This document shows positions 20,085 through 58,966 of a stretch of DNA of 64,000 nucleotides, in pieces. Source of the DNA: Planctomycetota bacterium. Its GTDB lineage: Bacteria; Planctomycetota; UBA1135; UBA2386. Position numbers and translations under genes: made by a program. The first letter of the stretch is position 1. Every line of letters begins with the position of its first letter. The notes below the pieces were generated by a model, which was given only the letters and a program-made list of their open reading frames with translations, did not search any database and was not told where the DNA came from. The stretch is from the NCBI GenBank assembly GCA_050181465.1, contig JBFXDD010000005.1, positions 125,587 to 189,586 of the forward strand, given 5' to 3'.

Positions 20085-21095
20085 GTGGCGAAATCCAAGC
20101 CGATGCTGCCGAATCGATCGCAAGACCAAGCAGAGAACCGAACGCCGTGGCGTTGGTCATGGCCGCTCATGACGGGCGCGCTCGCAATCGCCGCGTCGAT
20201 TGCATGGACGACAGCTCCGTGGATGATCACGGGAGGAGATGACGGTGGAGATGGAGCCGCGCCCAATGGAGTGCTCGCGGCAGCACCCGCCGCGATGCCG
20301 CAGGGCGGATTGGTCGACACTGACGGCGACCTCTTGCCGGACTGCGTGGAGTTGCCGCTGTTGCTGGATCCGAGTGCGGTCGATAGCGACAGCGACGGGA
20401 TCGACGACTTCCTCGCCGCCGCGCAGTTCCGGCGACCCTTCGACCATCCTGGTTCGCCGCGACCGATGGACGACGAGATGCGGGTGGTGGTCTCCGCCTC
20501 GGAGAACGTCGCCGGGGTCGAGTCGGTGTGGGTCCACTTCCTCTTCCGATTCGTCGGCGCGAATCTCGGCGAACTGCGTGGGATCACACCCTTCCTGGAT
20601 CTCTCGGGCACGCGCTACTCGTTTGCCAGCATGATCGGCGCCGGCGGCGTCGCCATGAGCACCCGAGTGGATCCCGTCGAGGGGCTCTTCTGCGTCGCCT
20701 CCTTCGAATTGCTCAATCTGGAAGCTTTGCGGAACATCCTGCCGTGCACGGTGGGTGCGACCGCGATGGTGGGCAGCCGACTGATCCATTCGGGGGCATA
20801 TCTTCAGGACGTCGCCGGGGTCGTCACGGTGCTCACCGCCGCCGACGACGACAAGGGAATGGTTGTCCCGCTCGATCCAGCTGCCACGGACGATCCCTTC
20901 TGGACCTCGGCGCGAATCTGCGTCATGCAGTTGGAGGTCATGTCCACGACGCCGAGCGGTTCGCTCTGCGAGGTGCGCAACGCGGAATGCATGTCGAGCG
21001 GTCGCCTAGCCTGTCCGCCGACTTGCCTGCAATCGCGGGGCTCGTCGATGTTCTTCCCCAACGGGTTGGGGACCGTGACCGGCAGCGGCCGCTAG
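20085..21095 (+). CDS. Secreted hypothetical protein with thrombospondin-type-3-like Asp-rich calcium-binding repeat
   Basis: Motif DTDGDLLPDCVELPLLLDPSAVDSDSDGIDDF. The likely signal peptide begins at MTGALAIAASIAW (ATG 20169), so the true start may be 20169 rather than GTG 20085. The TAG stop lies inside repeat copy H. Confidence 0.45.
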   Translation: MAKSKPMLPNRSQDQAENRTPWRWSWPLMTGALAIAASIAWTTAPWMITGGDDGGDGAAPNGVLAAAPAAMPQGGLVDTDGDLLPDCVELPLLLDPSAVDSDSDGIDDFLAAAQFRRPFDHPGSPRPMDDEMRVVVSASENVAGVESVWVHFLFRFVGANLGELRGITPFLDLSGTRYSFASMIGAGGVAMSTRVDPVEGLFCVASFELLNLEALRNILPCTVGATAMVGSRLIHSGAYLQDVAGVVTVLTAADDDKGMVVPLDPAATDDPFWTSARICVMQLEVMSTTPSGSLCEVRNAECMSSGRLACPPTCLQSRGSSMFFPNGLGTVTGSGR

Positions 21096-21213
21096 TCCGA
21101 AGGATTCGTGAGCATCTGCTGCGATCGCCGCAAGCCGCGCTCGGCGGCGGCGCTACGTGCCGAGCATCGACCTGTGGCGATCTCGCGACGACGTTTCCGA
21201 ATAGTTCGGGCTG
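21092..21213 (-). repeat. Nested-palindrome intergenic element, medium form (copy H, reverse orientation)
   Basis: The reverse complement CCAGCCCGAACTATTCGGAAACGTCGTCGCGAGATCGCCACAGGTCGATGCTCGGCA...CCGCCGCCGAGCGCGGCTTGCGGCGATCGCAGCAGATGCTCACGAATCCTTCGGACTAG aligns end to end with copy F, apart from an internal deletion of roughly 64 bp. Confidence 0.88.
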
Positions 21214-21428
21214 GGCATTCGCTCCGGCAGCTCGTTGCCCCGGTGGAGTCAGTGCGGCATTGAGTGCGGTATGAGCCCCTTGTACGCTCCAAGCCGCTCT
21301 CCTCGACGGACTTCGGTCAGATTCCCAATTCGGGCCGAGCCCCTCTCACGCGCGGACTTTCCACACCGTTACGGAACATCCGGATCGGTCCTGGTCGTCC
21401 GAACCGCCATCCGCTGCCGTCTCCACTC

Positions 21429-24550: not shown

Positions 24551-25132
24551 TCCGCGTCTCCTTGACGCATCGCCCCGTGGCCGCCGCTTCGCCACCACGG
24601 CTGGTGGTGCCGGTGTTCAAGAACTCCTGAGTGCCCTGCGGAGTCGCTGAGCAGAGTCTTCCCGGCTCGCGCGGCTGCGACGGCCGAGCCGACGGCGCGA
24701 CATCGGCGCATCCGAACTCTCTTCCAGGACTCTAGAGCGTCGGCTCACGACGATTCCCCACCTCGGAGCGCGCGTCCTGTCACCGCGAATCGGCCCCATT
24801 CCTCGCCTGTCGGGTGCCCCGTCGAACGTTCTCCACAGTTCGAACGACCTGAAGATCAGGTCGGTGACAAGCCACGAAACCAAGACCAACAACAAGACAT
24901 CGCTCGGCCAGGAGTCCGGCAAGCAGCGGCGGCTGCTCCCATCGACGGCGAAGCTCGCGAAACCTCGCAGCGACCCGCTCCTGAAGGCATTCGACGGTGT
25001 TCCCCAGGGGCCGTGCAGCTACATTCTCGGGGCTCGCTAGGCCGCACCCTCTCCCCTACCTCGAACCGTCGCGGGGAGAGGTTGGCGTGCTCCTCGAGCC
25101 TCCGTGCACCGGCCCTTTCCCCGCCCCAAGAC

Positions 25133-26226
25133 ATGAAGATCCTCTGCGATCGGCAAGAGTTGCAGGATGCCTTCGCCGCTGTCAGTGGCATCCCGCCCGT
25201 CAAGAGCACCAAGACGGTCCTCCAGAACGTCTTGCTGCGTGCCGAGCCCGAGCGTGTCGTGTTCCTCGCGACCGACAACGAGATGACCGCACGCGCCACG
25301 CTCCGGTCCGTGAAGGTATCGGAACCCGGCAGCATCCTGCTTCCCTGCCGAGAGACGAGTGCGCTGATTCGCGAACTGAGCGAGCCGACGGTCGCGATCA
25401 AGGCCAGTTCGGACCGCTGTCGGATCGAGAGTGGTTCCGGTTCGTTCGATCTCCTGAGTGCGGATGTCGATCAGTTCCCGCCGGAGCCCAAGCTGCAGGC
25501 CGAAGTCGAACTCGAGGTTTCGATGAAGGACATCCTGCAGATGTATCGGCGAACGTCCTTCGCCTGCGCCAAGGAAGAGACTCGTTACGCCATCAACGGT
25601 GTGCTCATCGATTTCGTCGACGGCTGTCTTCGGATGGTCGGCACCGATGGTCGTCGCCTCGCCCTCGCCTACACCAACATCGCCACCCAGGCTCCGCGCA
25701 TCCGAGCGGTGGTGCCGCTCCGCGCCCTGAATGCCTTGACCAAGGCGTTCGCCGACGACAGCGAAGCCATGTTGACGATCGGCATCGCGCGATCGCAGAT
25801 TCGCTTCGAAGCGGCTGGGAACCTGCTGGTTTCGCAGTTGCTGGACAACCGATTCCCCGACTACGAGCAGGTCATTCCGAAGGCCGCGGAGACGGTCATC
25901 GAAGTGGACCGACAGGAACTGGAACGCAACCTCCGCCGCGTTGCGGTCCTCGCTTCGAACGACATCCGCATGGTCGCTCTCGAATTCGCCGACGGCAATC
26001 TCGACATGCGCGCGGAGAGTTCCAGCGTCGGCAAGGCCCATCTCACGATGGCTGTCGACATGAAGGGCAAGCCCGTCAAGATGGGATTCAACCCCGACTT
26101 CCTCATCGAAGCCCTGCGCGTCTCCGAGTTGGACACGATTCGTATCGACGTCGTCGACGGTTCGGTTCCGATCAAGTGCGCGCTCGGTGAGTCCTATAGC
26201 TACATCCTCATGCCGATCGGCGCGTC

Positions 26227-26230
<4 letters not shown>
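25133..26230 (+). CDS. dnaN: DNA polymerase III beta subunit (sliding clamp)
   Basis: Start at ATG 25133 (MKILCDRQELQDAFAAVSGIPPVKSTKTVLQNVLL). It has typical clamp features (FLATDNEM, RYAINGVLIDF, MVGTDGRRLA, SYILMPI). Confidence 0.92.
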
Positions 26231-28975
<2,745 letters not shown>

Positions 28976-29009: not shown

Positions 29010-30470
29010 ATGGACCGATTCCGACAGGCCTTCGGTATCGCGACGATCGTCGCCGCGATCGCGCTCGGCGCGTGGTTCTTTCGTCTCTTGGCAGACGACG
29101 GCAAGTCGGGACTCTTCGAACTGCGGATCGAGTTTCGCGACGTTCGCGGACTCAAGTCCGGCGCTGATGTTCGGTACCGCGGAGTTCGCGTCGGCACGGT
29201 GACGAGCGTTTCGATCGGACTCGACGGCGAGAAGGGTGTGGTCTCCCTGCTGCTCGAACCCGATGGCTCTCGACTCGCGCGGCAGGCGAGTCGCTTCTGG
29301 GTCGTCGTCCCTCGCTTCGGCGGCCTCACATCGGGCGCGACCGGGCTCGACACCCTCGTGCGCGACGCCTACGTAGCGTTCCTCACCGAGGAGATCGAAT
29401 CGCCGGAACTCGCGGCCGGCAGCCTGCTCGCCGGGCTCGAGCGTCCGCCGGTCGACCGAGCCATGGCGGACCTCGATCCTATCGAACGCGGCGACTTGCT
29501 GATGACGCTCCTCGTTCTCGAGAACGGCGGCATCGATGCCGGCGCATCCATTCAGTTTCGAGGGATCTCCGTGGGCGAGGTGCGGCGCGTCGAACTCGCG
29601 TCGACCGGAACACACGTCGAACTCACGCTGCGAATTCGCGAACGATTCCGTACGACGGTCACGGACAAGACCAGCTTCTGGGTCGCCAAGCCACGCGTGT
29701 CGGGTGCCTTGCTGCGCGGCATCTCGTTGGACGATGTCGGCGCCTTGCTCAGCCCGTTCATCGGCTACCACAACCAGGACGAGCGCGGTGTGCCCGTTCC
29801 GGACGGCTATCGAGCGGTCGCGCGGGAGGAACGGCCCGACACCTCGGCCAGCGAGATCCCGGCCAGCGCTCGCGAGCAGCCGCCGACACAACCGCGACTC
29901 GCGTCGGGCGAGGTCATCGCCGTCGAAGTGATCTACGAGTGCACCGAGGAGGACTGGCTGAGTCCGAACGACGAGGAGAAGCGACGCGGCTCTGGCGTGA
30001 TGTTCGTCGATTCTCAGGGTCGCACGGCGGTGTTGACGGTGCGCAGCCTCTGTGACGGTGCCTCGTTCATGGCCGACACCTTCGGTGGTGTCGAGATCAA
30101 GAGTGAGGCGATTCGCGTGGTGGTCCCGAAGGTCGGCGTGTTTCGAGCCGGCCGCACCTGGATCGACCCGGCGGGCGGGGAGCTCGCGTTGCTGATCCTG
30201 GACGGCGTCCCACCCGACCTCCCGGCGACCTTGTCCTCCGCGATGGAGTTCGAGGCCGACGTCGACACTGCGGACGGGTTCTTGATCGCCGGTGCCGAAC
30301 ATCCTGCAACGCTCACCAACGGACTACCCTCGTTGGCGGATGCCCGCGGCGGGATCCTCGTGCGTGGCGGGACCGTGGTCGGACTCGTGGGCCGAAGCAC
30401 GTCGGATGCTGCCAAGCCGGCGCGAATCGCCCTGAGTTCGGTTCCGGCCGGGCTGAGGCCGCGGCCGTGA
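29010..30470 (+). CDS. MCE/MlaD-PqiB-like protein (N-terminal TM, two MCE domains) with C-terminal degenerate trypsin-like domain
   Basis: TM helix AFGIATIVAAIALGAWFF. MCE-type stretches are VRGLKSGADVRYRGVRVGTVTSV, RFWVVVPRFGGLTSGATGLDTLV, IQFRGISVGEVRRVEL and SFWVAKPRVSG. The C-terminal ~170 aa resembles a chymotrypsin fold (GSGVMFVDSQGRTAVLT, ELALLILDG, GGILVRGGTVVGLVG) but lacks the catalytic His and Ser. Confidence 0.7.
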   Translation: MDRFRQAFGIATIVAAIALGAWFFRLLADDGKSGLFELRIEFRDVRGLKSGADVRYRGVRVGTVTSVSIGLDGEKGVVSLLLEPDGSRLARQASRFWVVVPRFGGLTSGATGLDTLVRDAYVAFLTEEIESPELAAGSLLAGLERPPVDRAMADLDPIERGDLLMTLLVLENGGIDAGASIQFRGISVGEVRRVELASTGTHVELTLRIRERFRTTVTDKTSFWVAKPRVSGALLRGISLDDVGALLSPFIGYHNQDERGVPVPDGYRAVAREERPDTSASEIPASAREQPPTQPRLASGEVIAVEVIYECTEEDWLSPNDEEKRRGSGVMFVDSQGRTAVLTVRSLCDGASFMADTFGGVEIKSEAIRVVVPKVGVFRAGRTWIDPAGGELALLILDGVPPDLPATLSSAMEFEADVDTADGFLIAGAEHPATLTNGLPSLADARGGILVRGGTVVGLVGRSTSDAAKPARIALSSVPAGLRPRP

Positions 30471-31984
30471 GCGATTCCTCGCCGTCGCTCGCGATCGAAC
30501 TTCGCGACTTCGGCCTCGCCTACCGAGGACGGGCCAAGGAGCGGATCGTCTTCGTCGACGTCGATCTGAGCATTCCCTCCGGGTCCTTCCTTCTGCTCGT
30601 CGGCGAGAGCGGCTCGGGTAAGTCCACGCTGCTCCGCCTGTTGTGCGGGCTGTGGGAGAGTCGCGAGCCCGCTCCGCGAGTACGCGGCAGCGTGCGGGTG
30701 CTCGGCGAGAACGTCGGCGTGCACTATCCGCGTCGCCTCCGTGGTCAGGTGCAGGCGGTTCTGCAGGACGAGGGTCTGCTCGACGAACTTTCCCCGCGCG
30801 GCAACGTGGAACTCGCACTTCGCGTCGCGAAGCGATCGCCGACGCTCGCACTTGGCTTGCTCGCCCAGGTGGGCCTCGAACATCCTCCAGAACGCGTTCA
30901 CGAACTGTCCGGCGGCATGCGAAAGCGCGTGGCGGTCGCACGGGCGCTCGGCGGTGGCCCGAGACTCTTGTTCTTCGATGAGCCGACGGCCGGACTCGAT
31001 GCCGAATCGGCGCGCGCGATCGCGACGTTGTTGGTCGACACGCATCGTTCGACTGCGGGGGCCCGTACGACGATCGTGATCACGCATGACCTGAGAGCCT
31101 TCGAGGGCCTGCACGACGGAGTCCTCCACATCGATCCCGACTCGAAGTCGCTGCGATGGATTCCACCCGGAGAGCCGATCGTGGACGACGATCGGGACGT
31201 GGAGATCGAGGCGACCGTGGAGCCGCTCTTCGATCTCCGCGGTCTGCAAACGCTGCTCTACGGCGCGGCTGACTTCGGGGCGACGATCGGCAACGCGATC
31301 TGGCGGATCGTGCCGCGATGGCCCGAACTCGCTGCCGGAACCATTCGTCGCTACATCATCGAAGCTGCCGTCTTCGTCGTCATTGGGTGCGCGACCGTCG
31401 GCGGACTCGCGATGTTCTTCGCGCTGCGGAACAATCCGCTCGAAGGAGCCTTCACCGGAGCGCTGATCACCGGATCGGGGACCGTTCTCGTCGCGGTGCT
31501 CATCCCGCTCCTCGCCGGATTCTTCTTCACCGCGCGCGTCGCCGCCGGCGCGGCTGCGCGACTCGGAACGATGAAGCGCACCGGCCAGATCGATGCGCTA
31601 CGCATGATGGGGATCCGGCCGGTCGACTACTTGTTGATCCCGCTGCTCTGGGGTGTCTGTGTTGCACTGCCGATCGTCACTGCCTGCGGAGTCGTCTTTG
31701 CGGGACTGGCATCACTCTTCGCAGCACAACTCGTGAGCGGAATCTCGGCGTACGGATGGGCACGAGCCTTCATCGTGGAACTCGATCGAGGCGACATTCG
31801 TTTTGTTGCCTACAAGGCCCTGATCTCGGGCTTCCTCGTGGCCATCGTCACCTATTTCTTGGCCACGGGCCCGAAGCGGTCCGGTCTCGATGTGGGACGA
31901 GCGGTCAACGGCAGCATCGTGTTCGGGATGACCGCGGTCTTGCTGGTGCACGCCGCTCTGATCCTCCTGCATTACGCGCGCTAA
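30467..31984 (+). CDS. ABC transporter with fused ATP-binding (MlaF-like) and permease (MlaE-like) domains
   Basis: The GTG overlaps the MCE gene stop (GTGA). It has Walker A GESGSGKST, signature LSGGMRKRVAVARAL and Walker B LLFFDEP. A multi-TM MlaE-like C-terminal half follows (GSGTVLVAVLIPLLAGFFFTARVAAGAAARLGTMKRTGQIDALRMMGI). The TAA stop lies in repeat copy A. Confidence 0.75.
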   Translation: MSDSSPSLAIELRDFGLAYRGRAKERIVFVDVDLSIPSGSFLLLVGESGSGKSTLLRLLCGLWESREPAPRVRGSVRVLGENVGVHYPRRLRGQVQAVLQDEGLLDELSPRGNVELALRVAKRSPTLALGLLAQVGLEHPPERVHELSGGMRKRVAVARALGGGPRLLFFDEPTAGLDAESARAIATLLVDTHRSTAGARTTIVITHDLRAFEGLHDGVLHIDPDSKSLRWIPPGEPIVDDDRDVEIEATVEPLFDLRGLQTLLYGAADFGATIGNAIWRIVPRWPELAAGTIRRYIIEAAVFVVIGCATVGGLAMFFALRNNPLEGAFTGALITGSGTVLVAVLIPLLAGFFFTARVAAGAAARLGTMKRTGQIDALRMMGIRPVDYLLIPLLWGVCVALPIVTACGVVFAGLASLFAAQLVSGISAYGWARAFIVELDRGDIRFVAYKALISGFLVAIVTYFLATGPKRSGLDVGRAVNGSIVFGMTAVLLVHAALILLHYAR

Positions 31985-32209: not shown

Positions 32210-32797
32210 GTGAAGGGCATCGAAAAGCTCACCCCGATTCGACTCGCGGAAGTCCTCACCCAACGTGGACTCGTCCCGAACGAGACGATCACCGATGCGC
32301 TGTACTCCCAGGACCGCTACGGCGAGTCCTTCTCGGAGGTCTTGGTCAGCAGTGGTCAGATCAACGAATGGGACCTGGCGAAGGTGGTCGTCGAAGTCTT
32401 CGGCATCCCGTTCATGATGGCGAGTTCGTACGACATCACGAAGGAGGCGCAGTCCGCCATCCCGAAGGAGTTGTTGTTCCGCCACATGGTGGTGCCGCTG
32501 GATCGCTTGGGCAACGTCGTCACCGTGACGATGCCGATCCTCACGCCGTTCGACGTGCTCGGAAAGATCGGTCGCGAATCCGGCTGCGAGATCTATCCGT
32601 TCGTCGGCTTGATCGGGGAGAACCGCAAGGTCTTGGCCAACATCTACTCCGACTATGAGGACTGGCGACTCGAGCAGGAGAAGAAGCGCGAGGAACTCCG
32701 CAAGTCGCGATCGAATCGGAAGGAGCGCGGCGGAGACTGGATGTCGATGTTCGACTCCGCCGACGAGCAGGTTCGCAAAGACCGCCGCGATCCCTGA
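32210..32797 (+). CDS. Stand-alone GspE/PilB N-terminal (T2SSE_N / MshEN) domain protein
   Basis: Start taken as the in-frame GTG at 32210. The sequence RLAEVLTQRGLVPNETITDALYSQ...SFSEVLVSSGQINEWDLAKVVVEVFGIPFMMASSYDITKEAQSAIPKELLFRHMVVPLDRLGNVVTVTMP matches the T2SSE_N architecture. No ATPase domain is present. The upstream part of the tracked ORF starts inside repeat A and is an artefact. Confidence 0.6.
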   Translation: MKGIEKLTPIRLAEVLTQRGLVPNETITDALYSQDRYGESFSEVLVSSGQINEWDLAKVVVEVFGIPFMMASSYDITKEAQSAIPKELLFRHMVVPLDRLGNVVTVTMPILTPFDVLGKIGRESGCEIYPFVGLIGENRKVLANIYSDYEDWRLEQEKKREELRKSRSNRKERGGDWMSMFDSADEQVRKDRRDP

Positions 32798-32810
32798 GTT
32801 CGATCAGTCG

Positions 32811-32903
32811 CTAGCCCGGATGACTCGTGAACGTCGTCGCGAGATCGCCGCCGGGCGCGAGTTGCGGCGATCGCAGCAGACGGTCACGAATGATCCGGGC
32901 TAG
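32811..32903 (+). repeat. Nested-palindrome intergenic element, short form (copy B)
   Basis: Sequence CTAGCCCGGATGACTCGTGAACGTCGTCGCGAGATCGCCGCCGGGCGCGAGTTGCGGCGATCGCAGCAGACGGTCACGAATGATCCGGGCTAG. CTAG is present at both ends. The right arm overlaps the last codons and the stop of the convergent tatA-family gene. Confidence 0.92.
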
Positions 32904-33366
32904 GGGTTTGCGGGTCCGCCTCTGCGGCCGAGCCCGTCACCGAGGCGCGCCGCTCCCGTTCACCAGCAGGTTCGTCGGTCGCGTGGTCGGTCGTCGACTC
33001 GTGCCCTTCGACGGCGGCGCGCTCCGCGGCCAAGCGTTGCGACTCTGCCTCGATGACCGCTTGGTGGTCGTCGCCTGGGTCGCGATCGTCGGGGTGTTCC
33101 GGATGATCGTCGGCCATCACGTGATCGACCAGGCGCTTGGGATCCAGCGCCTGCCGCGGCGCATCCAATGCACTGCGCATGTCGCGCATGCCGGACCGCA
33201 CCTCGCGCAGGCTCTCGTCACGATCCAGTTCGCGCCGGAAGTCATCGAATCCCCGGCGTAGGTTCGCCACGGTGCGCCCGACTTGCCGCCCGACCTCCGG
33301 AAGTCGCCTCCCGTAGATCATGATCCCCACGAAGAGGATCATCACCCACTCGCCGGTGCTCGGCAT
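32884..33366 (-). CDS. tatA: Twin-arginine translocase TatA/TatE/TatB-family protein with long acidic C-terminal tail
   Basis: Start at ATG 33366. The sequence MPSTGEWVMILFVGIMIYGRRLPEVGRQVGRTVANLRRGFDDFRRE gives the canonical TM helix, hinge and amphipathic helix. At 160 aa it is long for TatA. Confidence 0.75.
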   Translation of the reverse strand: MPSTGEWVMILFVGIMIYGRRLPEVGRQVGRTVANLRRGFDDFRRELDRDESLREVRSGMRDMRSALDAPRQALDPKRLVDHVMADDHPEHPDDRDPGDDHQAVIEAESQRLAAERAAVEGHESTTDHATDEPAGERERRASVTGSAAEADPQTPSPDHS

Positions 33367-33526
33367 GCTGAGGAAGGCGAGGGGTAGGGGGAGTGAAGTC
33401 ACGACGGTTCATCGTCGGCTGCCGTTGCCGTGTGTCAACCGGGCGGGCGGGTCGCTAACCTGTTCGGCCCCAATGTCCGCCCGCGCACCATTCCGGTTCG
33501 CGCGTACCGGCGGAACCTGATCGCCC

Positions 33527-42545: not shown

Positions 42546-42551
42546 TCCGAG

Positions 42552-45752: not shown

Positions 45753-45816
45753 GCCGGGGCTGCGGGGTGGCGTATTCGAGCGTGGGGAGTGTCGCTCTGT
45801 CCATCTTCGCCACCGA

Positions 45817-47733: not shown

Positions 47734-47757
47734 GGGGTGTTCCCGAGGTCAGCAGCC

Positions 47758-47941
47758 CTAGCCCGAACTATTCGCGAACGTCGTCGCGAGATCGACACAG
47801 GTCGATGCCTGCCAAGGAGCTACGACGGTCCACGACCGAAGCGTAGCCGCAGCTACGCGGCCAGGGAGGAGCCGTCGTTGCGACGCAGCTCGGCGCGAGT
47901 TGTGGCGATCGCAGGAGACGTTCACGAGTAATCCGGGCTGG
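47758..47941 (+). repeat. Nested-palindrome intergenic element, long form (copy C)
   Basis: The sequence runs CTAGCCCGAACTATTCGCGAACGTCGTCGCGAGATCGACACAGGTCGATGCC...GCGTAGCCGCAGCTACGC...GCGCGAGTTGTGGCGATCGCAGGAGACGTTCACGAGTAATCCGGGCTGG. It has the same ends and core as the short form plus a ~90-bp internal module. Confidence 0.9.
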
Positions 47942-47984
47942 CCCGTTGCTCACCGGTTCTTGCCCATCGGTGGACTCGACGCCG

Positions 47985-48005
47985 CGTGAATGATCATCAT
48001 TCACG
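47985..48005. repeat. Perfect 9-bp-stem hairpin between repeat copies C and D
   Basis: CGTGAATGA-TCA-TCATTCACG was read directly from the sequence. The stem shares the CGTGAA/TTCACG motif of the repeat-family arms. Confidence 0.8.
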
Positions 48006-48020
48006 TCATGAATGGATTTC

Positions 48021-48116
48021 TTAGCGCGGACGACTCTTGAACGTCGTCGCGAGATCGACGCAGCCGGGCGCGAGTTGTGGCGATCACAGCAGACGTTCAC
48101 GAGTCGTCCGGGCTGG
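48021..48116 (+). repeat. Nested-palindrome intergenic element, short form (copy D)
   Basis: Sequence TTAGCGCGGACGACTCTTGAACGTCGTCGCGAGATCGACGCAGCCGGGCGCGAGTTGTGGCGATCACAGCAGACGTTCACGAGTCGTCCGGGCTGG. The arm variant GGACGAC...GTCGTCC changes on both sides, which is compensatory. Confidence 0.92.
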
Positions 48117-48368
48117 ACTGGTCGAGGACGCCCTCTCCGAGCGTCTTGGTTCGATGCCGGCGATCGTCGTGACCGGGCATGGGAGCGCTTTCCTCTCAGG
48201 AGATCGCGGCCGGAGATTCTGGTCGATAGATATGATCGAGAGTCATGAGTTCCGTCAGGCGAGTCGGCTTACGAGGGTTCCCTCGGGAACGCAGGTGTCG
48301 ACTGCCCGCTTCCCTCGCCACTCTGACACCGAACTCATGTTCCCCGTTCAACCGGAAGCAAGGGACAA

Positions 48369-50297
48369 GTGACGAGCGAAGCTAACCTCCTCAAGTTCGC
48401 ACTTGCCGTCGGCGTGCTACTGCTGGTCGCCCTCGTCTCATGGATCGTCCTATCCGTGGACGCTGAGCGAACGGGAAGTATGGAATCCAGCCGAGCTTTG
48501 CGTTCGCAAGCGAACAACCACTCACGAGATGGAGTGAGCGGCATTGCGAACCCCGGGCTGGAACGCGCTCGTGTGAAGGTGGGGCAACTCACGGTTCGCG
48601 TTCTCGATTCGAAGTCGGCACCGCTCTCCACCGCCCAAGTGGCCGTCAGGTCGATGGGGCTGGAGGACGACTGGGAACTGCTCGGTGACGCCGGTGACGG
48701 TCGGTTCGCACTGCCGCCGCTGTCTCGATTCGAAGGGAATCTCGTCCAAGTTCAGGTCGTCGCTCCCGGGTTCCTGCCGCATCTGAGCCGGCACCAGGTT
48801 CCTGTGTCATCGAGTCCACAAGACGTCATCGAAGTCGTGCTGTTGGAGCCCGCCGTTCTGGATGTGATGGTTCGGTATTCCGACGGATCGCCCGCCACCG
48901 GGGTCCGGGTTTGCCTGCTGCCGACTCCTGGCAACTTGCGGGTCGAAGAGATCTCTCCCGGACTGTTGCTGGAGCGAGCGATCCTCAGGCGGCCGACTGA
49001 GGACGGAACCGTGTCGTTCACTGGCCTGCAGCCTGACGAACGATACGTGTGTGCCTGTCTTGCCGCGCACGACGACGGAACAACTCGCTCACCCGCGCTG
49101 GAGGTGCGTTCTCTCCTGTTGGCGGAGGGGCGCAACTCCGAGCCGATCCGACTGCCAGCGACCCGCATTCGGGGCGCATTCCTCTCTGCAATTCGGGCGG
49201 AGCGAGGTGAAGCAACACTGCTGTCCATCACCGGTGTGTCCAAAATGAATCGCCCACCGAGCTCCTCGCTCAGTGGGAAGACCATTAGCGAGCTCCTGCA
49301 GACGGATCTTGGCTCGAACGGCAGCTTCGAGTTCCTCGTTCATGAGCCGGGTCGATACGCCATATTGGCCTCCCGAAGCGCGGACAGAGACGTCTGGGTT
49401 GGCGCCTGGGACGTGGACGTGACGAAGCTCGGCATCGACATCGACCTCGGTCAGTTGTCCTCTGCGTCAAACTCCTCGGTACCGGTCCGCGTGGATCTCG
49501 ACGGTCTGGTCCCCGCCTCAGCAATCGAGGACTCGAGATTGGCGGTCAGAGTCGCCACCGGGAGGACGGGCGATCCGAGGTCCTCCGAGGATCTCTACTC
49601 GATCGGATTCCACATGGAGTTGGCTGCCGGCGTGCTCACGACAATTCACGGTCTACCGAACTTGACCGTGTTCTTTCATGCAAGAGAAGTCATCACTCCA
49701 GCGAAGATCGATCCCATTCCGCTGGCGATGCTCCCAAGCTGGAAGTGGAGCGAAGAACAATCTTCGCCGGCCACGCTGGTGGTATCGAGAGATCGTCGCC
49801 CGCGTGTTTCCTTCGTCGTGCATGGGGCGGATGTGCAACCGACTCAAGTCACGGGCTTGGTCATTCATCGAGACGACACTCGCAAGTCCGTCGTGATCTC
49901 GGCGGAAACGGTCACATGGAATCGCGAGGAGCAGGTGCTTCATGCCTTCTGCCGAGCGGACAGCGGCAGGTATAGGGCAGTGTTTCGTTGGAGGGCGGGA
50001 GAGGCGTTCGTCACGGCCGCCGGCGAGTTCGATGTCTTCGACGCGGACGTCTCGTCGGATGTCCGTCCAGCCGCATGCTCGATGGTCGAGTTCAGCGTGG
50101 ACACGGTGAACATCAGTACGCTTCCGGTTCTCAGCTTCGGCTTCGTGGGTAGCGATGAAGTCATCTCGGCGGTCCGGCCGTGGTCCGATGGGATCTATCG
50201 GATCGAGAGCGTCCCGGAGCATCAGTCCATCTGGGTCTACGGCTTGCCCAAGGGCGATTCGATTCGAACGGCCGATCGACGGATCACGTCTCGGTGA
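48369..50297 (+). CDS. Membrane-anchored protein with carboxypeptidase-regulatory-like repeats, function unknown
   Basis: GTG start at 48369. The N-terminal TM helix is KFALAVGVLLLVALVSWIVLSV. Repeats follow of the type LTVRVLDSKSAPLSTAQVAVRS...GDGRFALPPL. The gene is bracketed by repeat copies D and E. Confidence 0.5.
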   Translation: MTSEANLLKFALAVGVLLLVALVSWIVLSVDAERTGSMESSRALRSQANNHSRDGVSGIANPGLERARVKVGQLTVRVLDSKSAPLSTAQVAVRSMGLEDDWELLGDAGDGRFALPPLSRFEGNLVQVQVVAPGFLPHLSRHQVPVSSSPQDVIEVVLLEPAVLDVMVRYSDGSPATGVRVCLLPTPGNLRVEEISPGLLLERAILRRPTEDGTVSFTGLQPDERYVCACLAAHDDGTTRSPALEVRSLLLAEGRNSEPIRLPATRIRGAFLSAIRAERGEATLLSITGVSKMNRPPSSSLSGKTISELLQTDLGSNGSFEFLVHEPGRYAILASRSADRDVWVGAWDVDVTKLGIDIDLGQLSSASNSSVPVRVDLDGLVPASAIEDSRLAVRVATGRTGDPRSSEDLYSIGFHMELAAGVLTTIHGLPNLTVFFHAREVITPAKIDPIPLAMLPSWKWSEEQSSPATLVVSRDRRPRVSFVVHGADVQPTQVTGLVIHRDDTRKSVVISAETVTWNREEQVLHAFCRADSGRYRAVFRWRAGEAFVTAAGEFDVFDADVSSDVRPAACSMVEFSVDTVNISTLPVLSFGFVGSDEVISAVRPWSDGIYRIESVPEHQSIWVYGLPKGDSIRTADRRITSR

Positions 50298-50373
50298 AAC
50301 CACGAACCAGATCACATGACTGGTTCGGAACTCGCCTGAGGGTGATCTCTTGGGAGCACGGCGGACGCTCGTG

Positions 50374-50469
50374 CTAGCCCGGATCACGCGTGAACGTCGT
50401 CGCGACATCGACGCAGCCGGGCGCGAGTTGCGGCGATCGCAGTGGATCTCTACGAATCATCCGGGCTAG
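50374..50469 (+). repeat. Nested-palindrome intergenic element, short form (copy E)
   Basis: Sequence CTAGCCCGGATCACGCGTGAACGTCGTCGCGACATCGACGCAGCCGGGCGCGAGTTGCGGCGATCGCAGTGGATCTCTACGAATCATCCGGGCTAG. CTAG is present at both ends. Confidence 0.92.
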
Positions 50470-50497
50470 AACAGCCACCGCCTTGGGGTTTCCCGAC

Positions 50498-51829
50498 ATG
50501 CGAACTCGACTTCAGCAACAGCTCCTTCGTTTCGGATCGTGCCTGTTACTCGGGATGGCTGCCGGCCGCGCTCAGGACTGGGTCGCCCTCGACCAGGCCT
50601 GCGCTCGAGCCGCTGAGGCCGGATCCACGTTCTACGTGGTGGTCGCAGGCCGGAACACCGAACCGTTCATCCGCACAGCCGGCGAATTGCCTCGCGCGGC
50701 GCAGAACGGAACTCCGTTGCTTCCGCTCGGCGACGTGTCGCGAGTGCTGCTCGCCAGTCTCTTGCGTGCCGTTGCCGGCGACCAACGTATCGACATCGAC
50801 AAGCCGATCGTGCAGGAGGAGGACGCGACTCTCTGGGCACTTGGCCCACCGTTTACTCGATGGACCTGGAGAGAGGTCGTCAACGGGACTGCCGCTGGCG
50901 CTCTTCCAGCATGGCGATTCCTCGGGTCGGGAGACCGGGCACGCAGCTCGGCCGAGTTCCTTGCCGCGCACGCCCTGAAGGATGAGACCGCACGCTGGCA
51001 TCGAGTCGCGAGCAACGAATCGAGCCAGGTACCCGTCGCCGTTCTGCAGGCTGCACTCGAGCGTCGAACGGGGAAGAGTCTCGCAGCCTGGGTCCGCGAT
51101 GCGGGTGCGGCAGCAGGGTTGCCGAGTGCGTGTCTGAGCGACTCCGGGCTCGGCGGGTGTCCGAACGCCGAAATGGATGCCGCGCACGACTTGACGTTGA
51201 CCCCGACGGATCTTCCGCGCTTCCTGCGGGCGATGCTCGATCTCGACTTCAAGCTGAATGTGCACGGTCTGGAGCGGGTCTTCGGCCTGCAACCGACGGA
51301 CTTCGATTTCAGCATCTTCGGGAAGGGCTGCGATCGTCATGCACACGTAGATCGGTGGCGCGGCGCAACTTGCCGCGTGTCGACTTCGTTCGCCGGCGAC
51401 CACGTGTTCTTCTCCTGGTCCGGTGATTCCCGGGAACCAGATTTTCTCGAGGCGTTCCTGAGCGATCTTGACGAGGGCGATGTCCTGTACACGGGAGCAG
51501 TCGGCTACGGCGAACCTCGAGATCCGGAGGCAACCCATGGGATCGACGGCGAACAGGTTGCAGAGTTGAAGGATCTCGACGGCACGATCCGTCTCAGTCT
51601 CTCGGCTCCCGGCGATCAGCCCTGCGTTCGACTCGGCCCTCGCGAGGAGGTGATTCCTCTGACCCGGATCAGGGAGGATCTCTTTGCCGAGTTCGGACTG
51701 GGGGACACCAAGCGTGGTGTGTTGGACCTGCGCTTCGACGACGGTCGCTGGATCGGCACTCTGAGCACCTACGACAATCCACGCTACTGGCTGCCCTGGC
51801 GCATCACGTTCGAACGTGCCGGCCGTTGA
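50498..51829 (+). CDS. Secreted hypothetical protein, possibly a degenerate beta-lactamase/serine-hydrolase-like fold
   Basis: Start at ATG 50498 (MRTRLQQQLLRFGSCLLLGMAAGRAQ signal). LLPLGDVSRVLLASLLRAV resembles the G-S-x-S-K-x-x-TA region of class C/DD-peptidase-like hydrolases, but reads DVSR rather than SxxK. The upstream part of the tracked ORF begins inside repeat E. Confidence 0.4.
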   Translation: MRTRLQQQLLRFGSCLLLGMAAGRAQDWVALDQACARAAEAGSTFYVVVAGRNTEPFIRTAGELPRAAQNGTPLLPLGDVSRVLLASLLRAVAGDQRIDIDKPIVQEEDATLWALGPPFTRWTWREVVNGTAAGALPAWRFLGSGDRARSSAEFLAAHALKDETARWHRVASNESSQVPVAVLQAALERRTGKSLAAWVRDAGAAAGLPSACLSDSGLGGCPNAEMDAAHDLTLTPTDLPRFLRAMLDLDFKLNVHGLERVFGLQPTDFDFSIFGKGCDRHAHVDRWRGATCRVSTSFAGDHVFFSWSGDSREPDFLEAFLSDLDEGDVLYTGAVGYGEPRDPEATHGIDGEQVAELKDLDGTIRLSLSAPGDQPCVRLGPREEVIPLTRIREDLFAEFGLGDTKRGVLDLRFDDGRWIGTLSTYDNPRYWLPWRITFERAGR

Positions 51830-52179
51830 GCGACACTGACGTCGCCGACCACACTCGATACAGCGCCGTGCTTCGTTGGAGAACCGGTGAGGCGTTCGTT
51901 ACGGCCACCGTCGAGTTCGAGGTCTTCGACGAAGACGTCTCCTTGGATGTCCATTCAGCCGCAGGTTCGATCGTTGAGTTCAGCGCGGACCCGGTGAACA
52001 ACCGTGCGTTTCCGATTCTCAGCTTCGGCTTCGTGGGTAGCGATCACGTCTTGGCGAGTCGACGGAGCAGACACACGATTCGCTGCGGGCCCGGCGTTGT
52101 GAACCACTCGGCGGTCGGCAATCACCCATCCACGCGGCGCGCCGCGGTCTTCCACGCGCGCCACTCGCGGGTGAGATAG
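51826..52179 (+). pseudogene. Fragment homologous to the C-terminal part of the 48369..50297 gene (truncated paralogue remnant)
   Basis: The fragment reads HTRYSAVLRWRTGEAFVTATVEFEVFDEDVSLDVHSAAGSIVEFSADPVNNRAFPILSFGFVGSD. The full gene reads SGRYRAVFRWRAGEAFVTAAGEFDVFDADVSSDVRPAACSMVEFSVDTVNISTLPVLSFGFVGSD. DNA 51857-52044 aligns with 49969-50156, and the last ~29 bp are identical. Only ~60 aa are homologous. The TTG start overlaps the upstream stop, and the tail overlaps the convergent gene. Confidence 0.6.
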
Positions 52180-54926
52180 TCGACTTGGATCATGCCGCCC
52201 GTGTAGCGCCAGCCGTTCATCTCGAGCCAGGCGCCGTCGTCGGTGGAGCTTTGGATGTCGAGTTGATGACGAGGGACGTCGATCGTGAGTTGCTCGGCGA
52301 AGGCGCGCATGCCGCGCCACAACATGGATGCGTGGGTCGCGGCGAGCGATTGAACGCTGCCGCTGGTGCGATCGAGTGCCGCACGCAGTCGCAGCGTGGT
52401 GACATCGAGACCGAGAGGGTCGATCGAAGCGTCCCGACGCAGAGCGAGAATTCGTGAAGTGCCGTCGACCATCAGTTCGTCATCGGTCAGAACGATGGGC
52501 GACGACGCGATGACGCGCAGGTTGTCGAGATCACCGCCGTCGGTTCGTTCGCCGGCGTCGCTCACCGTCGCCGCGGGAGCGAGCAGGTCGATCTCCGGTG
52601 CCGATGATGGTCCCGGCCACAACTCGATGCGCGAACCGCCGGCAGCTTGCACGCCGCGGAGTCGATCGCCGCGCGCGAGTAGTCGCCGCCCGCTCGGCTC
52701 GATTCGTTCGAGGACGGCCGGCGAGCCGTGCAACATCGCTGCCGCCGACGAGGGCAGCAGGAAGAGCCGATCGCCCTGACTGCGTCCTTGATCCACCGCG
52801 GCAACGTCACGCCGCACCAGGAGGACATCGCGATCGGCGAGCACGGCCGGCTGCGTGATCGCCAGAGTCCACCGCGAACCCAGGCCGTGTGCGACCAGAA
52901 CGGCGCGCGGCAGAAGGGTCGGCAGAAAGGTGATGCGCCGCGAACTCAGCTCCGCGCTCTCAGCGGCGGCACCGACGGCGTTCTTGGTCCAGGCACCGCG
53001 CACTTCGGCGGGCGTCCCGCGCACGACGATCGCCGGTTGACCGATCGAGTGCGGCACCACATCGATTCGACCGCCGACCAGGGTCCCGCCGCCTTCCCGC
53101 TCGACGCGCGCCGGTGAGCCGAGAACCACGAGTCGCTGGCCGTCCCATGTCTCGATACGTTCGCCGAAGGTCCGAATCGCTTCCTGCCGACCCTTGCCGA
53201 CGTCGAGCGTGGTGGCGAACTCGACCGCGGGTCCGCTCGCGACGATCGAGCGCACGACCTCGCGTCCCTCGATCGATGCCTCGAGTGCCGCCACGCCGAC
53301 GACCTTGCCGCGATCGCTCTGCACGGTGACGTCGGCGACATCCGACCGCAGATCGAGAGCCACGCTGCCGAGCGTCGATCGTTCGATCACGCATCGGCCG
53401 GTGCCGTCGACGACGATCGGCTGACCCTTCGTCGGCACCGTCTCGACGTGAAAGCGCGACGGTGCGGCAGGATCCTCGCCCAGCTGCATCCGTTCGCCGA
53501 GCGGAGATCGCGAATACACGAACCCCTTCGCAGACTCCGCGAGCAGCTCCGGCGAGGTGATCATCGCTGCGTTCGCCGTGCGCGCGATCGCGAGCCCGGC
53601 GTCGCCGGCGAGGATGCGGATGCCGTCCTTGGCGACGATCGTGGACTCCTTCTTGTGATCGGTCAGCGTGGTCTGCTCTTCGAAGCGAAGGAGCCAGCGC
53701 GCCAGGAAACCGAGCCGCAGCGGATTGCCGCCGGCCAGCCGATGTTGCGGTGCCAGCCAACGTTCGAGGTCGACCAGCGATGCGCGGCCCTTGCAGCGCA
53801 CCGAGATTCCGCGCGCCGGGTCGTCGAGCTGCGGATTGCCGTCGGCGACGATCACCGCGGGCTCTCCCGCGAGCGACGGACGGACGACCAACTCCGCGCA
53901 GCGCACCACGAAGGTGTCGAACGCGACCCGCACCGGCGCGCCGCGAAGCAGCAGGTTGCGCCAAGCGCCATCGCCGCCGGCCAACGGTTCGACTGTCGCC
54001 GCGGGGGCCGCGGTGTTCCGCTGCAGCAACGCGATCAACTCCTCGGCTTCCCCGTTCACCGCCTTGCCGCCGGCGAACTCGCCGAGGATGCGCACCGCAT
54101 TGCGCATGGTGAGCCGACCGAACCCGGTGGCGACGTCCTCTCGGTATTGCAGCTTGCCGCTCGCCTGAAGGGTGCCGGCACGACTTCGCACGACGGGATC
54201 GTTGGCGATGTCGAATCGCAGAGTGCCGCCGACCTCGTCCTCGCCGCGAGGCACGAAGCCGTCGACGCCGCGACCGGTCATCGTCACTTCACCGGCCCCG
54301 AGCAGCTTGGCTTCGAAGGGCACCTGGTCGTCCGGGGTGCGCAGGTGAATCCCGCTGTCGTCCTGTCGCACGAGCGCGCGGGCGATCGCGATGCGGATGT
54401 CGGACTGCGACGAGCCGGGGACCGACGTCAGCACGATGTCCGCGAGGTCCATGTCGCGATCCTCGCGGATCGAGGGGCGACCCTCTTCGTCGCGGCCGAT
54501 CTGCACGAGCGCTTCGCGCGCGACGATCTTCGCCACCGCCTTCTCACTCGGCGGGTTCGTCGTCCGATCGACGCGATATACGTCGACCGTGACGCGATCG
54601 AGATGCACGAGGTCGGACGACACCGTCGCGCTGTCCTCGGCGACGAATCGGTAGCGGCGAAGCCGTCGCCTCGAACCGTCGGCGAGCGTGATCTCGACCT
54701 TCGGTTCGATCTGGAATCGCCCGCGCATCGACACCGCGACCGCGCTGTTGCGATCGCCGTCGGGATTGCCGATGACGATCTCGGGCGGCGGCCGTCGCGA
54801 GCTCTCGACCGGCTTCTTCGAGCCGCCGCTCCCCGTGCTCGCGAAGTTCTCGAAACCGATCGCGAAGTGCATGACGCCGAGGGCGACGACGATGAGCACG
54901 ATCGCGAGGAAGAGGCGGCGGATCAT
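52122..54926 (-). CDS. 934-aa membrane-anchored periplasmic protein, possibly an extended LptC/LptA (OstA-fold)-like protein
   Basis: N-terminal TM helix RRLFLAIVLIVVALGVMHF. The rest is long, beta-rich and repetitive (...VTVDVYRVD..., ...IVAREALVQ..., ...VRAFAEQLTIDV...). It lies 20 bp downstream of kdsD on the same strand. The function is inferred from position and composition only. Confidence 0.4.
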   Translation of the reverse strand: MIRRLFLAIVLIVVALGVMHFAIGFENFASTGSGGSKKPVESSRRPPPEIVIGNPDGDRNSAVAVSMRGRFQIEPKVEITLADGSRRRLRRYRFVAEDSATVSSDLVHLDRVTVDVYRVDRTTNPPSEKAVAKIVAREALVQIGRDEEGRPSIREDRDMDLADIVLTSVPGSSQSDIRIAIARALVRQDDSGIHLRTPDDQVPFEAKLLGAGEVTMTGRGVDGFVPRGEDEVGGTLRFDIANDPVVRSRAGTLQASGKLQYREDVATGFGRLTMRNAVRILGEFAGGKAVNGEAEELIALLQRNTAAPAATVEPLAGGDGAWRNLLLRGAPVRVAFDTFVVRCAELVVRPSLAGEPAVIVADGNPQLDDPARGISVRCKGRASLVDLERWLAPQHRLAGGNPLRLGFLARWLLRFEEQTTLTDHKKESTIVAKDGIRILAGDAGLAIARTANAAMITSPELLAESAKGFVYSRSPLGERMQLGEDPAAPSRFHVETVPTKGQPIVVDGTGRCVIERSTLGSVALDLRSDVADVTVQSDRGKVVGVAALEASIEGREVVRSIVASGPAVEFATTLDVGKGRQEAIRTFGERIETWDGQRLVVLGSPARVEREGGGTLVGGRIDVVPHSIGQPAIVVRGTPAEVRGAWTKNAVGAAAESAELSSRRITFLPTLLPRAVLVAHGLGSRWTLAITQPAVLADRDVLLVRRDVAAVDQGRSQGDRLFLLPSSAAAMLHGSPAVLERIEPSGRRLLARGDRLRGVQAAGGSRIELWPGPSSAPEIDLLAPAATVSDAGERTDGGDLDNLRVIASSPIVLTDDELMVDGTSRILALRRDASIDPLGLDVTTLRLRAALDRTSGSVQSLAATHASMLWRGMRAFAEQLTIDVPRHQLDIQSSTDDGAWLEMNGWRYTGGMIQVDYLTREWRAWKTAARRVDG

Positions 54927-56863: not shown

Positions 56864-56866
56864 ACC

Positions 56867-58780
56867 ATGACTCTTCGGAGCCTGCTCGTCGGCACCATTC
56901 TCATGGGGATGGTGGCGGTGCAGTATTCCCCTGCTCTCGAGCCACCCAGAGCAGCACAGCGCGCGGCGGATTCTCAGCATCTCGTGACGGCGCATCGCGT
57001 GGCGGTGATTCTCCGGCGCGCCGACGGCACGCCCTGGGCGGACGCGCACGTCCATGCTCGAGCGGGCTACTGGACGCCCGGCTGGGTGCTGCCCGGCTCG
57101 CCGCAGGCGGACGGCAAGAGCGACGCGAACGGTCGCTGCATCCTGTCGCTGGCGCCGTGCACGGAACACTGGATCTGGGCGGAGTCGGCGACGGACGACG
57201 GGAAGCGATGGATCGCGGATGCGGTCTCCTTGCGAGCCGAGAAGTCGGTGCGATTGGTCGCGCGACCCGATCCGGTCGGACCCACGATTCTTCGGCTGCG
57301 AAGCCAAGAAGACCGTTGCGCACGGGTGCGCGTTCGCGATCGCGCGTTGGGCTGGGAGCGGGAGTTCGAGGGGCTGCCCACCGAGTTGCGACTCGAAGCG
57401 CCGCCGTCGCCGTGGCTCGAAGTCGTGGTGTTCGATCCGGAGAGCCGGCCGAGTCTGCTGGTGGATGTTCAGAACGACGGCCGCGAGCACGTGATCGAGC
57501 CGGAGAGCACGCGTGTGCAGGAGGTCGTCGTCGTCGCGCCGCCGGCCGGCATCGATCCTGCGGATCTTCGCTTGCAGCTCTGGCATCGTGGCGAGACCTT
57601 CGATCTCGCCGCCTTCGATGCGCAGGGTCGCACCCGTTTCGACTTCGATCGCTGGCAGGGGCTCGTCGACGGCCGCGGGCAGTGCGCGAAGCAGTCGGGA
57701 AGTGCCTATGTGGTGAACGGTGACGCGATCGACCCGGTGGTGATCGACCTCGTCTGGTCGGACTACCGGCGCCCGGACACGACTCTCCCGATCCCGGTTC
57801 ATGTGCGAGCGCGCGAGCGCACGGGCGGGTGGTTTCGCATCCAACTCGGCGGGGAGGAGCTCGACCACGCCTCACTGCGCCGAGCGGTCGAGCTCGAGCA
57901 CGCGCACGGCGAACGGCGGAATCCGATCCGGTTTGCCTTGGACGAGCGCCTCGCTGGTCGTCGCGTGCCGTTGTCGATGAGCTTGAAAGAGTTCCCGCTC
58001 TGGTTGACCGGAGCCGCGCGGAGCGACGCAGCGCTAGCACGACAATGGCAGCCTTGGCTGGACGGAGTCGTGCCGATCCTCCTCGATGTTCCGCCGGATT
58101 CGGCGAGCCCGCCGCAGATCGACCTCGATCTGGCGACGGACTTCGTTCGCTGCGAACTGACCTTCGTCGGTGTCGATCGATTGCCGCTCGCAGACCAGTT
58201 CGTGCGCTGGTGGGTGCGACCGTCCGATCACGCCTGGCGCATGGATGTGCGCACCGATCCGAAGGGTGTCGCGCGGTTTCTCCTCCCGAAGAAGCTGACG
58301 AGTGACGCCTGGTGTTGGCATGTCTCGCCGCAGGGCTGGACCAGCTTCCTGCTCAATGAGCTTGCGATCGCCGAAGTCGCGAGGCGGACCGGCGTTCTTC
58401 GGGCCGAGATCCAGATGCTGCCGGTGCATCGGGTCCGCCTGGCCTGCGCCGAGCCGATGGACGTCACGCTGGCCGTGCGGTTCGACGACCAGCGATTGGA
58501 TCCGATTCCCGCTGCGGCCGTCTCCGACCGACCCGAGTGGATCGCCGTCGCTCGTCCCGAGAACGCGCTCGCTGGTTTCCGCGAGATCTACGAGTTCCGC
58601 ACGTACCGGCTGCCCGACGACCTGATCGCGGTCCCCGCACTGCCGCTGCGCAGCGTGATCCACCTCCGTTCACGGGTGACCGACGGCCAGCGACCCGAGG
58701 GCTTCCGGCGCCCGACCAACTTCGCGATCGAGGCATCGGTCGAGCCGCAAGTTCTCGAGTTCGTGCTGGAGCAGAGGTGA
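56867..58780 (+). CDS. Secreted or membrane-anchored hypothetical protein (637 aa)
   Basis: Hydrophobic N-terminus (SLLVGTILMGMVAVQ). At least one carboxypeptidase-regulatory-like segment is present (VAVILRRADGTPWADAHVHA...DANGRCILSL). It starts 4 bp after scpA, where scpB would normally be, but does not resemble ScpB. Confidence 0.45.
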   Translation: MTLRSLLVGTILMGMVAVQYSPALEPPRAAQRAADSQHLVTAHRVAVILRRADGTPWADAHVHARAGYWTPGWVLPGSPQADGKSDANGRCILSLAPCTEHWIWAESATDDGKRWIADAVSLRAEKSVRLVARPDPVGPTILRLRSQEDRCARVRVRDRALGWEREFEGLPTELRLEAPPSPWLEVVVFDPESRPSLLVDVQNDGREHVIEPESTRVQEVVVVAPPAGIDPADLRLQLWHRGETFDLAAFDAQGRTRFDFDRWQGLVDGRGQCAKQSGSAYVVNGDAIDPVVIDLVWSDYRRPDTTLPIPVHVRARERTGGWFRIQLGGEELDHASLRRAVELEHAHGERRNPIRFALDERLAGRRVPLSMSLKEFPLWLTGAARSDAALARQWQPWLDGVVPILLDVPPDSASPPQIDLDLATDFVRCELTFVGVDRLPLADQFVRWWVRPSDHAWRMDVRTDPKGVARFLLPKKLTSDAWCWHVSPQGWTSFLLNELAIAEVARRTGVLRAEIQMLPVHRVRLACAEPMDVTLAVRFDDQRLDPIPAAAVSDRPEWIAVARPENALAGFREIYEFRTYRLPDDLIAVPALPLRSVIHLRSRVTDGQRPEGFRRPTNFAIEASVEPQVLEFVLEQR

Positions 58781-58966
58781 GCCACCCTGACTATTCGTGA
58801 ACGTCGTCGCGAGATCGCCGCAGGTCGATGCTCGGCATGGAGCTACGTCGTGCGACGACCGAGGCGTAGCCGTAGCTACGCTGCCAGGGAGGAGCCGCCG
58901 CCGCCGCGCCGCCGCCGAGCGCGGCTTGCGGCGATCGCAGCAGATGTTCACGAATAGTTCGGGCTA
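58781..58966 (+). repeat. Nested-palindrome intergenic element, long form (copy F)
   Basis: The sequence runs ...CTGACTATTCGTGAACGTCGTCGCGAGATCGCCGCAGGTCGATGCTCGGCA...GCGTAGCCGTAGCTACGC...GAGCGCGGCTTGCGGCGATCGCAGCAGATGTTCACGAATAGTTCGGGCTAG. The left terminus has diverged, so that boundary is approximate. The right terminal TAG is the stop codon of the convergent gene. Confidence 0.88.

Follow-up and report, generated by a model that had tools for sequence, protein, structure and literature searches.

A 64-kb stretch of DNA from an uncultured planctomycete (contig JBFXDD010000005.1, positions 125,587 to 189,586 of the forward strand; hereafter the window, G+C ~65%) contains exactly eight copies of a single, previously undescribed repeat family, which is very probably a lineage-specific, non-autonomous miniature inverted-repeat transposable element (MITE) of the foldback type, palindromic over its whole length, that targets the tetranucleotide CTAG and whose insertions are filtered by purifying selection. 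Several copies end exactly on the stop codon of a flanking gene, a pattern that an earlier note on this DNA had read as remodelling of gene ends. At the five sites that can be compared with a sister species every copy is missing there, a single 4-mer occupies the position that is flanked by two when filled (one of the two being lost at one site), and at three of these sites the gene already stops at the same codon.

Repeat finding, BLAST and profile searches returned one family with a copy length of 93-184 nt and a density of about one copy per 7-8 kb of window. All eight copies listed by the earlier note were found again, two of them with slightly corrected coordinates:

Copy G, 12459-12642, minus strand: long form, 184 nt with its flanks CTGG and CTAG counted in; between the lexA stop (at 12408) and the ATG (at 12652) of a CDGSH gene.
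Copy H, 21092-21214, minus strand: intermediate form, 123 nt; CTAG (21092-21095) and CTGG (21211-21214).
Copy A, 31981-32076, plus strand: short form, 96 nt; flanks CTAA and CCAG.
Copy B, 32811-32903, plus strand: short form, 93 nt; CTAG on either end; stop of gene 32210..32797 on one side and a tatA-like gene on the other.
Copy C, 47758-47941, plus strand: long form, 184 nt; flanks CTAG and CTGG; 24 nt past the RecQ stop (47733).
Copy D, 48021-48116, plus strand: short form, 96 nt; flanks TTAG and CTGG; 79 nt past copy C, in the same spacer.
Copy E, 50374-50469, plus strand: short form, 96 nt; CTAG on either end; 76 nt past the stop at 50297 and 28 nt ahead of the NCBI-annotated ATG (50498) of the next gene.
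Copy F, 58785-58967, plus strand: long form, 183 nt; left 4-mer absent, right end CTAG (58964-58967); the body begins 4 nt past the TGA (58778-58780) of convergent gene 56867..58780.

The element is bounded by terminal inverted repeats of ~25 bp, CCCGGAnnAnTCGTGAACGTC ... GACGTTCACGAnTnnTCCGGG (also given as CCCGGACTATTCGTGAACGTC), whose arms are not themselves palindromes, and the entire sequence forms one hairpin, very stable on either strand, with folding energies of -49 to -59 kcal/mol (z-scores -4 to -7.6) for short forms and -136 kcal/mol (z = -14) for the long form. Within the long form, as seen in copy C, direct repeats CGACACAG and CGACGCAG (CGACRCAG) lie 88 nt apart, and removing the 88 nt between them from the long form yields the short form. 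Because all four short copies share this one internal junction, the deletion derivative must itself have been amplified to new loci. No copy in the window matched Pfam or Rfam, the only Rfam match in the window being one tRNA, and the plasmid collection held no sequence similar to the element. A perfect palindrome with 10-bp arms (CGTGAATGAT-C-ATCATTCACG, 47985-48005) occupies part of the 79-nt gap between copies C and D and weakly resembles the inner inverted repeat (..CACGAATGATC..). Logan short-read contigs of the source genome start or end inside element copies, contig L086 for instance starting inside copy F.

Three copies were found beyond the window. A ninth, long-form copy (contig L087, 1-134) ends 5 nt left of window position 1 (L087 position 136), its CTAG end standing 12 nt ahead of the ATG of gene 12..1511, and two further copies lie on unrelated contigs, L049 and L081. 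The first of these two came from a scan of 596 Gb of genome collections with an 18-nt degenerate pattern (AACGTCGTCGCGASATSG), too unspecific to be efficient: 73 loci matched and L049 alone is a true copy. The second came from a metagenome scan with a pattern of 21 specified bases, in which the other 5 matches are chance occurrences inside an unrelated coding gene. L049 (JBFWUX010000034.1) is a 5.2-kb contig labelled as a Dehalococcoidia metagenome-assembled genome; its long-form copy (3790-3973), in which the terminal inverted repeats are perfect, has an ECF-type sigma factor gene on one side and a hypothetical gene on the other, with a CarboxypepD_reg-domain protein ~1.2 kb further on. This gene content resembles that of the planctomycete window, and the contig is probably mis-binned.

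Empty sites were sought in sister-species contigs from JGI metagenomes (L074, L079, L077, L078), reached via homologues of three window proteins. These align to the window at 85-91% nucleotide identity over ~56 kb, making the sites of G, H, A, B and F comparable. All five copies are absent from the sister, with alignment breakpoints exactly at their positions:

Site A: sister (L074) GCG CTAG TCGGAC; window GCG CTAA (element) CCAG TCGACC.
Site F: sisters (L077, L078) GAGCGA CTAG ATCCC; window GAGCCA (element) CTAG ATCCCC.
Site G: sister (L079) GAGT CTAG ACTGGATGG ATG; window AAGC CTGG (element) CTAG ACTGGGCGA ATG.
Site H: sisters (L074, L079) CGC TGA GCA, 4-mer CTGA; window CGC TAG (element) CTGG GCA.
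Site B: sister (L074) GTCG CGCG GGGG; window GTCG CTAG (element) CTAG GGGT.

The sister 4-mer is thus CTAG at A, F and G, CTGA at H and CGCG at B. Each empty site carries one 4-mer where the filled site carries two, except at F, where one of the two has been lost; one CTAG is hence the host's target sequence, duplicated on insertion, as the earlier note had proposed for a YTAR-like or CTAG target. In more distant relatives (L075, L076, L088-L092), with an MlaFE protein 74-76% identical to that of the window, the element is absent and MlaFE stops at TGA; A and B were therefore gained in the lineage of the window. In all, nhmmer profiles run at maximum sensitivity found no copy in 187 kb of relatives.

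Around C, D and E, no sister orthologue of RecQ or of the two downstream genes came up in cluster look-ups, and contig L077 loses synteny below window position 52122. Window positions 42217-52121, which include RecQ and these three copies, have no match in the sister loci examined, and L077 continues beyond its orthologue of gene 52122..54926 with PIN/RHH toxin-antitoxin and ABC/MacB genes; together these findings suggest that the two species differ by a rearrangement or an insertion. The same part of the window holds a 192-nt direct repeat of 84% identity (49971-50162 and 51859-52050), the 3' part of gene 48369..50297 recurring at a small open reading frame (ORF), 51826..52179, which may be a duplicated gene fragment.

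The ends of the element point to the same target. Among 15 preserved end 4-mers, 8 are CTAG (both ends of B, both of E, the right end of G and of F, the left end of H and of C) and the remaining 7 are each one transition away from it (CTGG four times; CTAA, CCAG and TTAG once each), in keeping with the termini that the earlier note had read at these copies. CTAG is very rare in this DNA: 21 occurrences in 64 kb, against 204 expected from mononucleotide and 49 from dinucleotide composition, and 8 of the 21 are element ends. The other 13 are divided between solid genes (6) and non-coding DNA or dubious ORFs (7). The ~56 kb of sister DNA has 18 CTAGs, of which only two overlap a stop codon; in the window A occupies one of these and F the other. 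Where the sister is syntenic it has five non-coding CTAGs; three are filled in the window, and the two that are free lie in a divergent spacer holding a tRNA; further free non-coding CTAGs of the window lie upstream of lexA and of dnaN.

Some surroundings of these unoccupied CTAGs deserve record. The tRNA gene (19647-19720, minus strand; Rfam 70.8 bits) overlaps by 3 nt the 5' end of ORF 17844..19649 (minus strand), and its divergent spacer holds the unoccupied CTAGs 19942 and 19985. Upstream of lexA (11788..12408) by ~230-280 nt, GGTGGCTCTAGG occurs twice (11508 and 11529, 21 nt apart) and is followed by AGATCTAGG (CTAG at 11557), which places 3 of the 13 free CTAGs within 50 nt; this region, 11508-11565, could be operator-like, or could lie inside a small ORF annotated in the sister (L079 6399..6713). 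The cumulative GC skew has its minimum at ~24-26 kb, adjoining dnaN (25082..26230), dciA (26227..26529; Pfam DciA) and gyrB (26522..28975), and the 530-nt spacer upstream of dnaN, with unoccupied CTAGs at 24732 and 25037, is probably the replication origin.

Four of the eight copies overlap a flanking stop codon, the number that the earlier note had given. In three, the end 4-mer holds the stop. At H, the TAG at 21093-21095 ends gene 20085..21095. At A, the stop is a TAA (31982-31984) and belongs to the MlaF-MlaE fusion gene 30467..31984, in which the Pfam MlaE match extends to residue 499 of 505. At F, the complement of 58964-58966 is the TAG stop of minus-strand gene 58964..59857, so that the stop occupies the first three bases of the terminal CTAG and not, as previously described, the last three. 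In the fourth, copy B, the TatA_B_E-family gene 32884..33402 (minus strand) reads CCT AGC CCG GAT CAT TCG TGA in the right arm, giving one further feature already recognised in the earlier note:

tatA-like gene end, 32884..32903, minus strand: last six codons and TGA (..P S P D H S *), lying within the right arm of copy B.

The MlaFE protein itself joins MlaF (ABC ATPase) and MlaE (permease) in ~505 aa downstream of MlaD, a fusion kept in hundreds of Planctomycetota homologues.

With eight copies only, in a genome that is 92% coding and in which every spacer borders gene ends, such overlaps might be put down to a small-sample coincidence, the repeat being randomly scattered in intergenic DNA. 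If copies were placed uniformly over non-coding DNA and the final 10 codons of genes, however, the chance that at least three of eight would put their terminal TAG exactly at an unchanged stop is P ~2e-5. TGA accounts for ~41 of the 47 stops in our codon-usage gene map, yet 3 of the ~6 TAG or TAA stops are element-associated, and both stop-codon CTAGs of syntenic sister DNA are occupied sites. The overlap is real and beyond chance; we reject coincidence, which is extremely improbable, on the placement statistic and on the filled stop-CTAG sites.

That the overlap is real does not mean that the element made the stops. At A and F the sister has a TAG stop inside CTAG at the same codon, and at H it has TGA at the same codon, with third-position differences upstream showing a conserved frame. 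Since the stop was already in place at all three, these proteins were unchanged, not remodelled by the element, and its having created their stops is ruled out. The idea of remodelled gene ends holds for the tatA-like tail alone, the only one altered among the flanking proteins compared. Here CTAG lay two codons ahead of the stop, in the frame CCT AGC, and the reconstructed tail ..PQTPSD* became ..PQTPSPDHS*, a net change of three residues, with the former stop (the complement of 32804-32806) stranded on the far side of copy B. A comparison that the earlier note had suggested shows a different tail in a relative that lacks the insertion, reading ..PPPPRD* in the sister against ..PSPDHS* in the window. 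More generally, a reading frame entering an intact element end meets TAG immediately (frame 1), meets TGA after five codons (frame 2) or stays open to the far TAG (frame 3).

Each of the eight copies follows a plus-strand gene, and the divergent junctions, of which we counted nine and not six as before, contain none. From this siting the earlier note had drawn a second possibility: that copies are retained by selection only where the transcribed hairpin serves as a 3'-end structure, a terminator or an mRNA stabiliser. The very stable hairpins would suit that role on either strand, the spacers that hold free non-coding CTAGs are likely to be regulatory (those upstream of lexA and dnaN, and the divergent tRNA spacer), and REPs (repetitive extragenic palindromes) and Correia elements, as commonly described and in the background given in PMC3733652, affect mRNA stability. 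Avoidance of divergent spacers is nevertheless barely informative (P = 0.18 by spacer count, 0.03-0.04 by spacer length). Nor are the copies confined to 3' ends: the distance from the copy to the next start codon is 9 nt for G, 28 nt for E and 12 nt for the ninth copy, so that copies stand at 5' ends too. No T-run follows any of the hairpins, and the region has 11 terminator-like sites against 9.9 expected by chance, none of them at an element; an intrinsic (Rho-independent) terminator is rejected, there being no terminator-like site at copies A-E and no T-runs in their flanks. The sister and the distant relatives keep the genes without any of the comparable copies, which are therefore recent additions and not conserved structures, and a CTAG target by itself explains the exact coincidence with stop codons. 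Retention as 3'-end structures is thus not needed to account for the pattern, and we regard it as quite unlikely.

The reading we favour, insertion at CTAG followed by selection, would operate as follows. A transposase encoded elsewhere in the genome, outside the window, would act in trans by recognising the terminal inverted repeats, probably in a DDE-type cut-and-paste reaction, and would insert the element into CTAG, a palindromic tetranucleotide, by a staggered cut that duplicates either TA or the whole CTAG. Selection would remove insertions inside genes, and survivors would fill the few CTAGs at which insertion is harmless: intergenic ones, TAG stops preceded by C, and those in the last codons of genes. 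With the target duplicated, the gene would keep a complete (C)TAG on its own side, and a targeted stop would thus remain a stop at the same position; where CTAG lies in another frame the inverted repeat would supply TGA five codons in, as in the tatA-like gene. The extreme rarity of CTAG in a 65% G+C genome, combined with purging of disruptive insertions, accounts for the stop-codon pattern.

Because CTAG is palindromic, a 2-bp duplication (TA, IS630-like) and a 4-bp duplication (IS5-like) look alike. The earlier note's appeal to an IS5-type transposase is borne out as to the CTAG target and its duplication, while IS5 as the source and a length of 4 bp are undifferentiated from duplication of TA within CTAG. 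Copies D and L081 have TTAG on the left and a C-initial 4-mer on the right (CTGG and CTCG), which slightly favours a TA duplication over identical 4-bp copies, judging from their flanks. Duplication of TA is compatible with every site; the sister sequence at H (CTGA) has no TA.

Several points weigh against this account. The sister sites at H (CTGA) and B (CGCG) are not CTAG, and there the target would have to be deduced from the window's own flanks. Copy F has no left CTAG: 58781-58790 reads GAGCCA|CCCTGA where the sister site and consensus predict GAGCGA-CTAG-CCCGGA, which looks like a clean 4-nt loss and would require an extra event. Some inverted-repeat positions vary together on both arms, which could point to selection on the hairpin beyond transposase binding. 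No transposase is encoded in the 64-kb window and the plasmid collection holds no parent element, and the total sample is 11 copies (eight in the window, the ninth, L049 and L081). The family is nonetheless small, non-coding and multi-copy, with inverted repeats, a target duplication relative to empty sites and presence/absence polymorphism, all of them features by which MITEs are recognised.

A stronger proposal would be that stop-codon-safe colonisation is an adaptation of the element to a compact genome, beyond passive targeting of CTAG. If so, TAG and TGA frames entered from both ends, together with a stop-regenerating duplication, would allow near-costless saturation of C-preceded TAG stops and last codons, and the element could shape which genes keep TAG stops. 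We consider this doubtful; the occupancy on which it can draw in the syntenic DNA examined is 2/2 for C-TAG stops and 3/5 for non-coding CTAGs.

What we describe is ordinary transposon behaviour that opens no new mechanism. It documents a new abundant MITE family in an uncultured Planctomycetota lineage, one that could serve as a marker for strain typing and for detecting mis-binned contigs, and it is a worked example of how target specificity and purifying selection make a mobile element seem to supply stop codons. For annotators and comparative genomicists, an empty-site comparison is needed before such overlaps are read as gene remodelling.

Among known systems, the Correia (NEMIS) elements of Neisseria are abundant hairpin MITEs of 100-150 nt that duplicate a TA target, lie near gene ends and are co-transcribed with their neighbours, with documented RNA-processing and promoter effects; the present element shares the hairpin and the siting near gene ends, and differs in sequence and host phylum. 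Insertion sequences of the IS1380 and IS701 families also produce 4-bp duplications. MITEPsy1, a Pseudomonas syringae derivative of ISPsy2 (IS5 family), is a close precedent that duplicates the 4 nt CTAG or YTAA (PMC3189936). Like our element it is ~100 nt, non-coding and bounded by terminal inverted repeats. Its inverted repeats (GGAAGGTCTGAAAAAGCC) are unrelated to ours, it is not a whole-length hairpin, its duplication is 4 nt whereas 4 bp and 2 bp both fit here, and its parent is known whereas none was found for our element in the window or plasmid collection. IS5 itself duplicates YTAR (PMC5009759); our flanking 4-mers fit YTAR or its transitions, palindromic CTAG being unable to separate 4 from 2 bp, and our ends (CCCGGA..) are unlike the GGAAGGT.. 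ends of IS5 or ISPsy2 (PMC3189936). The insertion site of IS630 is the TA of 5'-CTAG-3' (Tenzen and Ohtsubo 1991, as cited in PMC2170065). On that description, IS630/Tc1-mariner elements and their MITEs share the palindromic CTAG target, and a TA duplication would give the C-TA-G...C-TA-G flanks observed here; the C-initial right 4-mer in the two copies with TTAG on the left is expected if G...C are element bases. The evidence for 2 over 4 bp amounts to one substitution in each of those two copies, D and L081, and neither a transposase of IS630 type nor a matching inverted repeat was found for our element.

The remaining comparison is with REPs and REPINs, and with it the possibility that the family is REP-like, moved by a tyrosine (HUH) transposase of the IS200/IS605 type (RAYT or TIRYT) acting on single-stranded hairpins. 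Insertion would then occur beside a CTAG, with the element's own CTAG at the other end, so that paired CTAGs would mimic a duplication. Such a mode of transfer would suit the one strong hairpin formed by the full element, the arm positions that change in pairs and the presence of CTAG on one side only of copy F. Against it, 9 of the 10 complete copies carry CTAG symmetrically at their two ends, and a symmetric duplicated tetranucleotide is not known for elements of the IS608/ISDra2 type; no tyrosine (Y1/RAYT) transposase was found in the window. The nearest parallel is with the GTAG-tagged REPs (Di Nocera et al. 2013), whose tetranucleotide tag is comparable to CTAG and whose termini often supply the TAG stop of flanking ORFs (PMC3733652), so that repeat termini in this role had already been described. 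They are reported in Planctomycetes too, R. baltica being rich in tyrosine transposase genes with flanking repeats (PMC3733652). Both families are palindromic intergenic repeats with tagged termini at TAG stops, and on these grounds a REP-like origin deserves mention, although we judge it unlikely: REP units are 20-40 bp imperfect palindromes or stem-loops tagged at one end (GTAG or CGTC) and associated with RAYT tyrosine transposases, with no target duplication mentioned (PMC3733652), whereas the present element is 93-184 nt long, has non-palindromic 25-bp inverted-repeat arms and carries CTAG at both ends, with a duplicated target.

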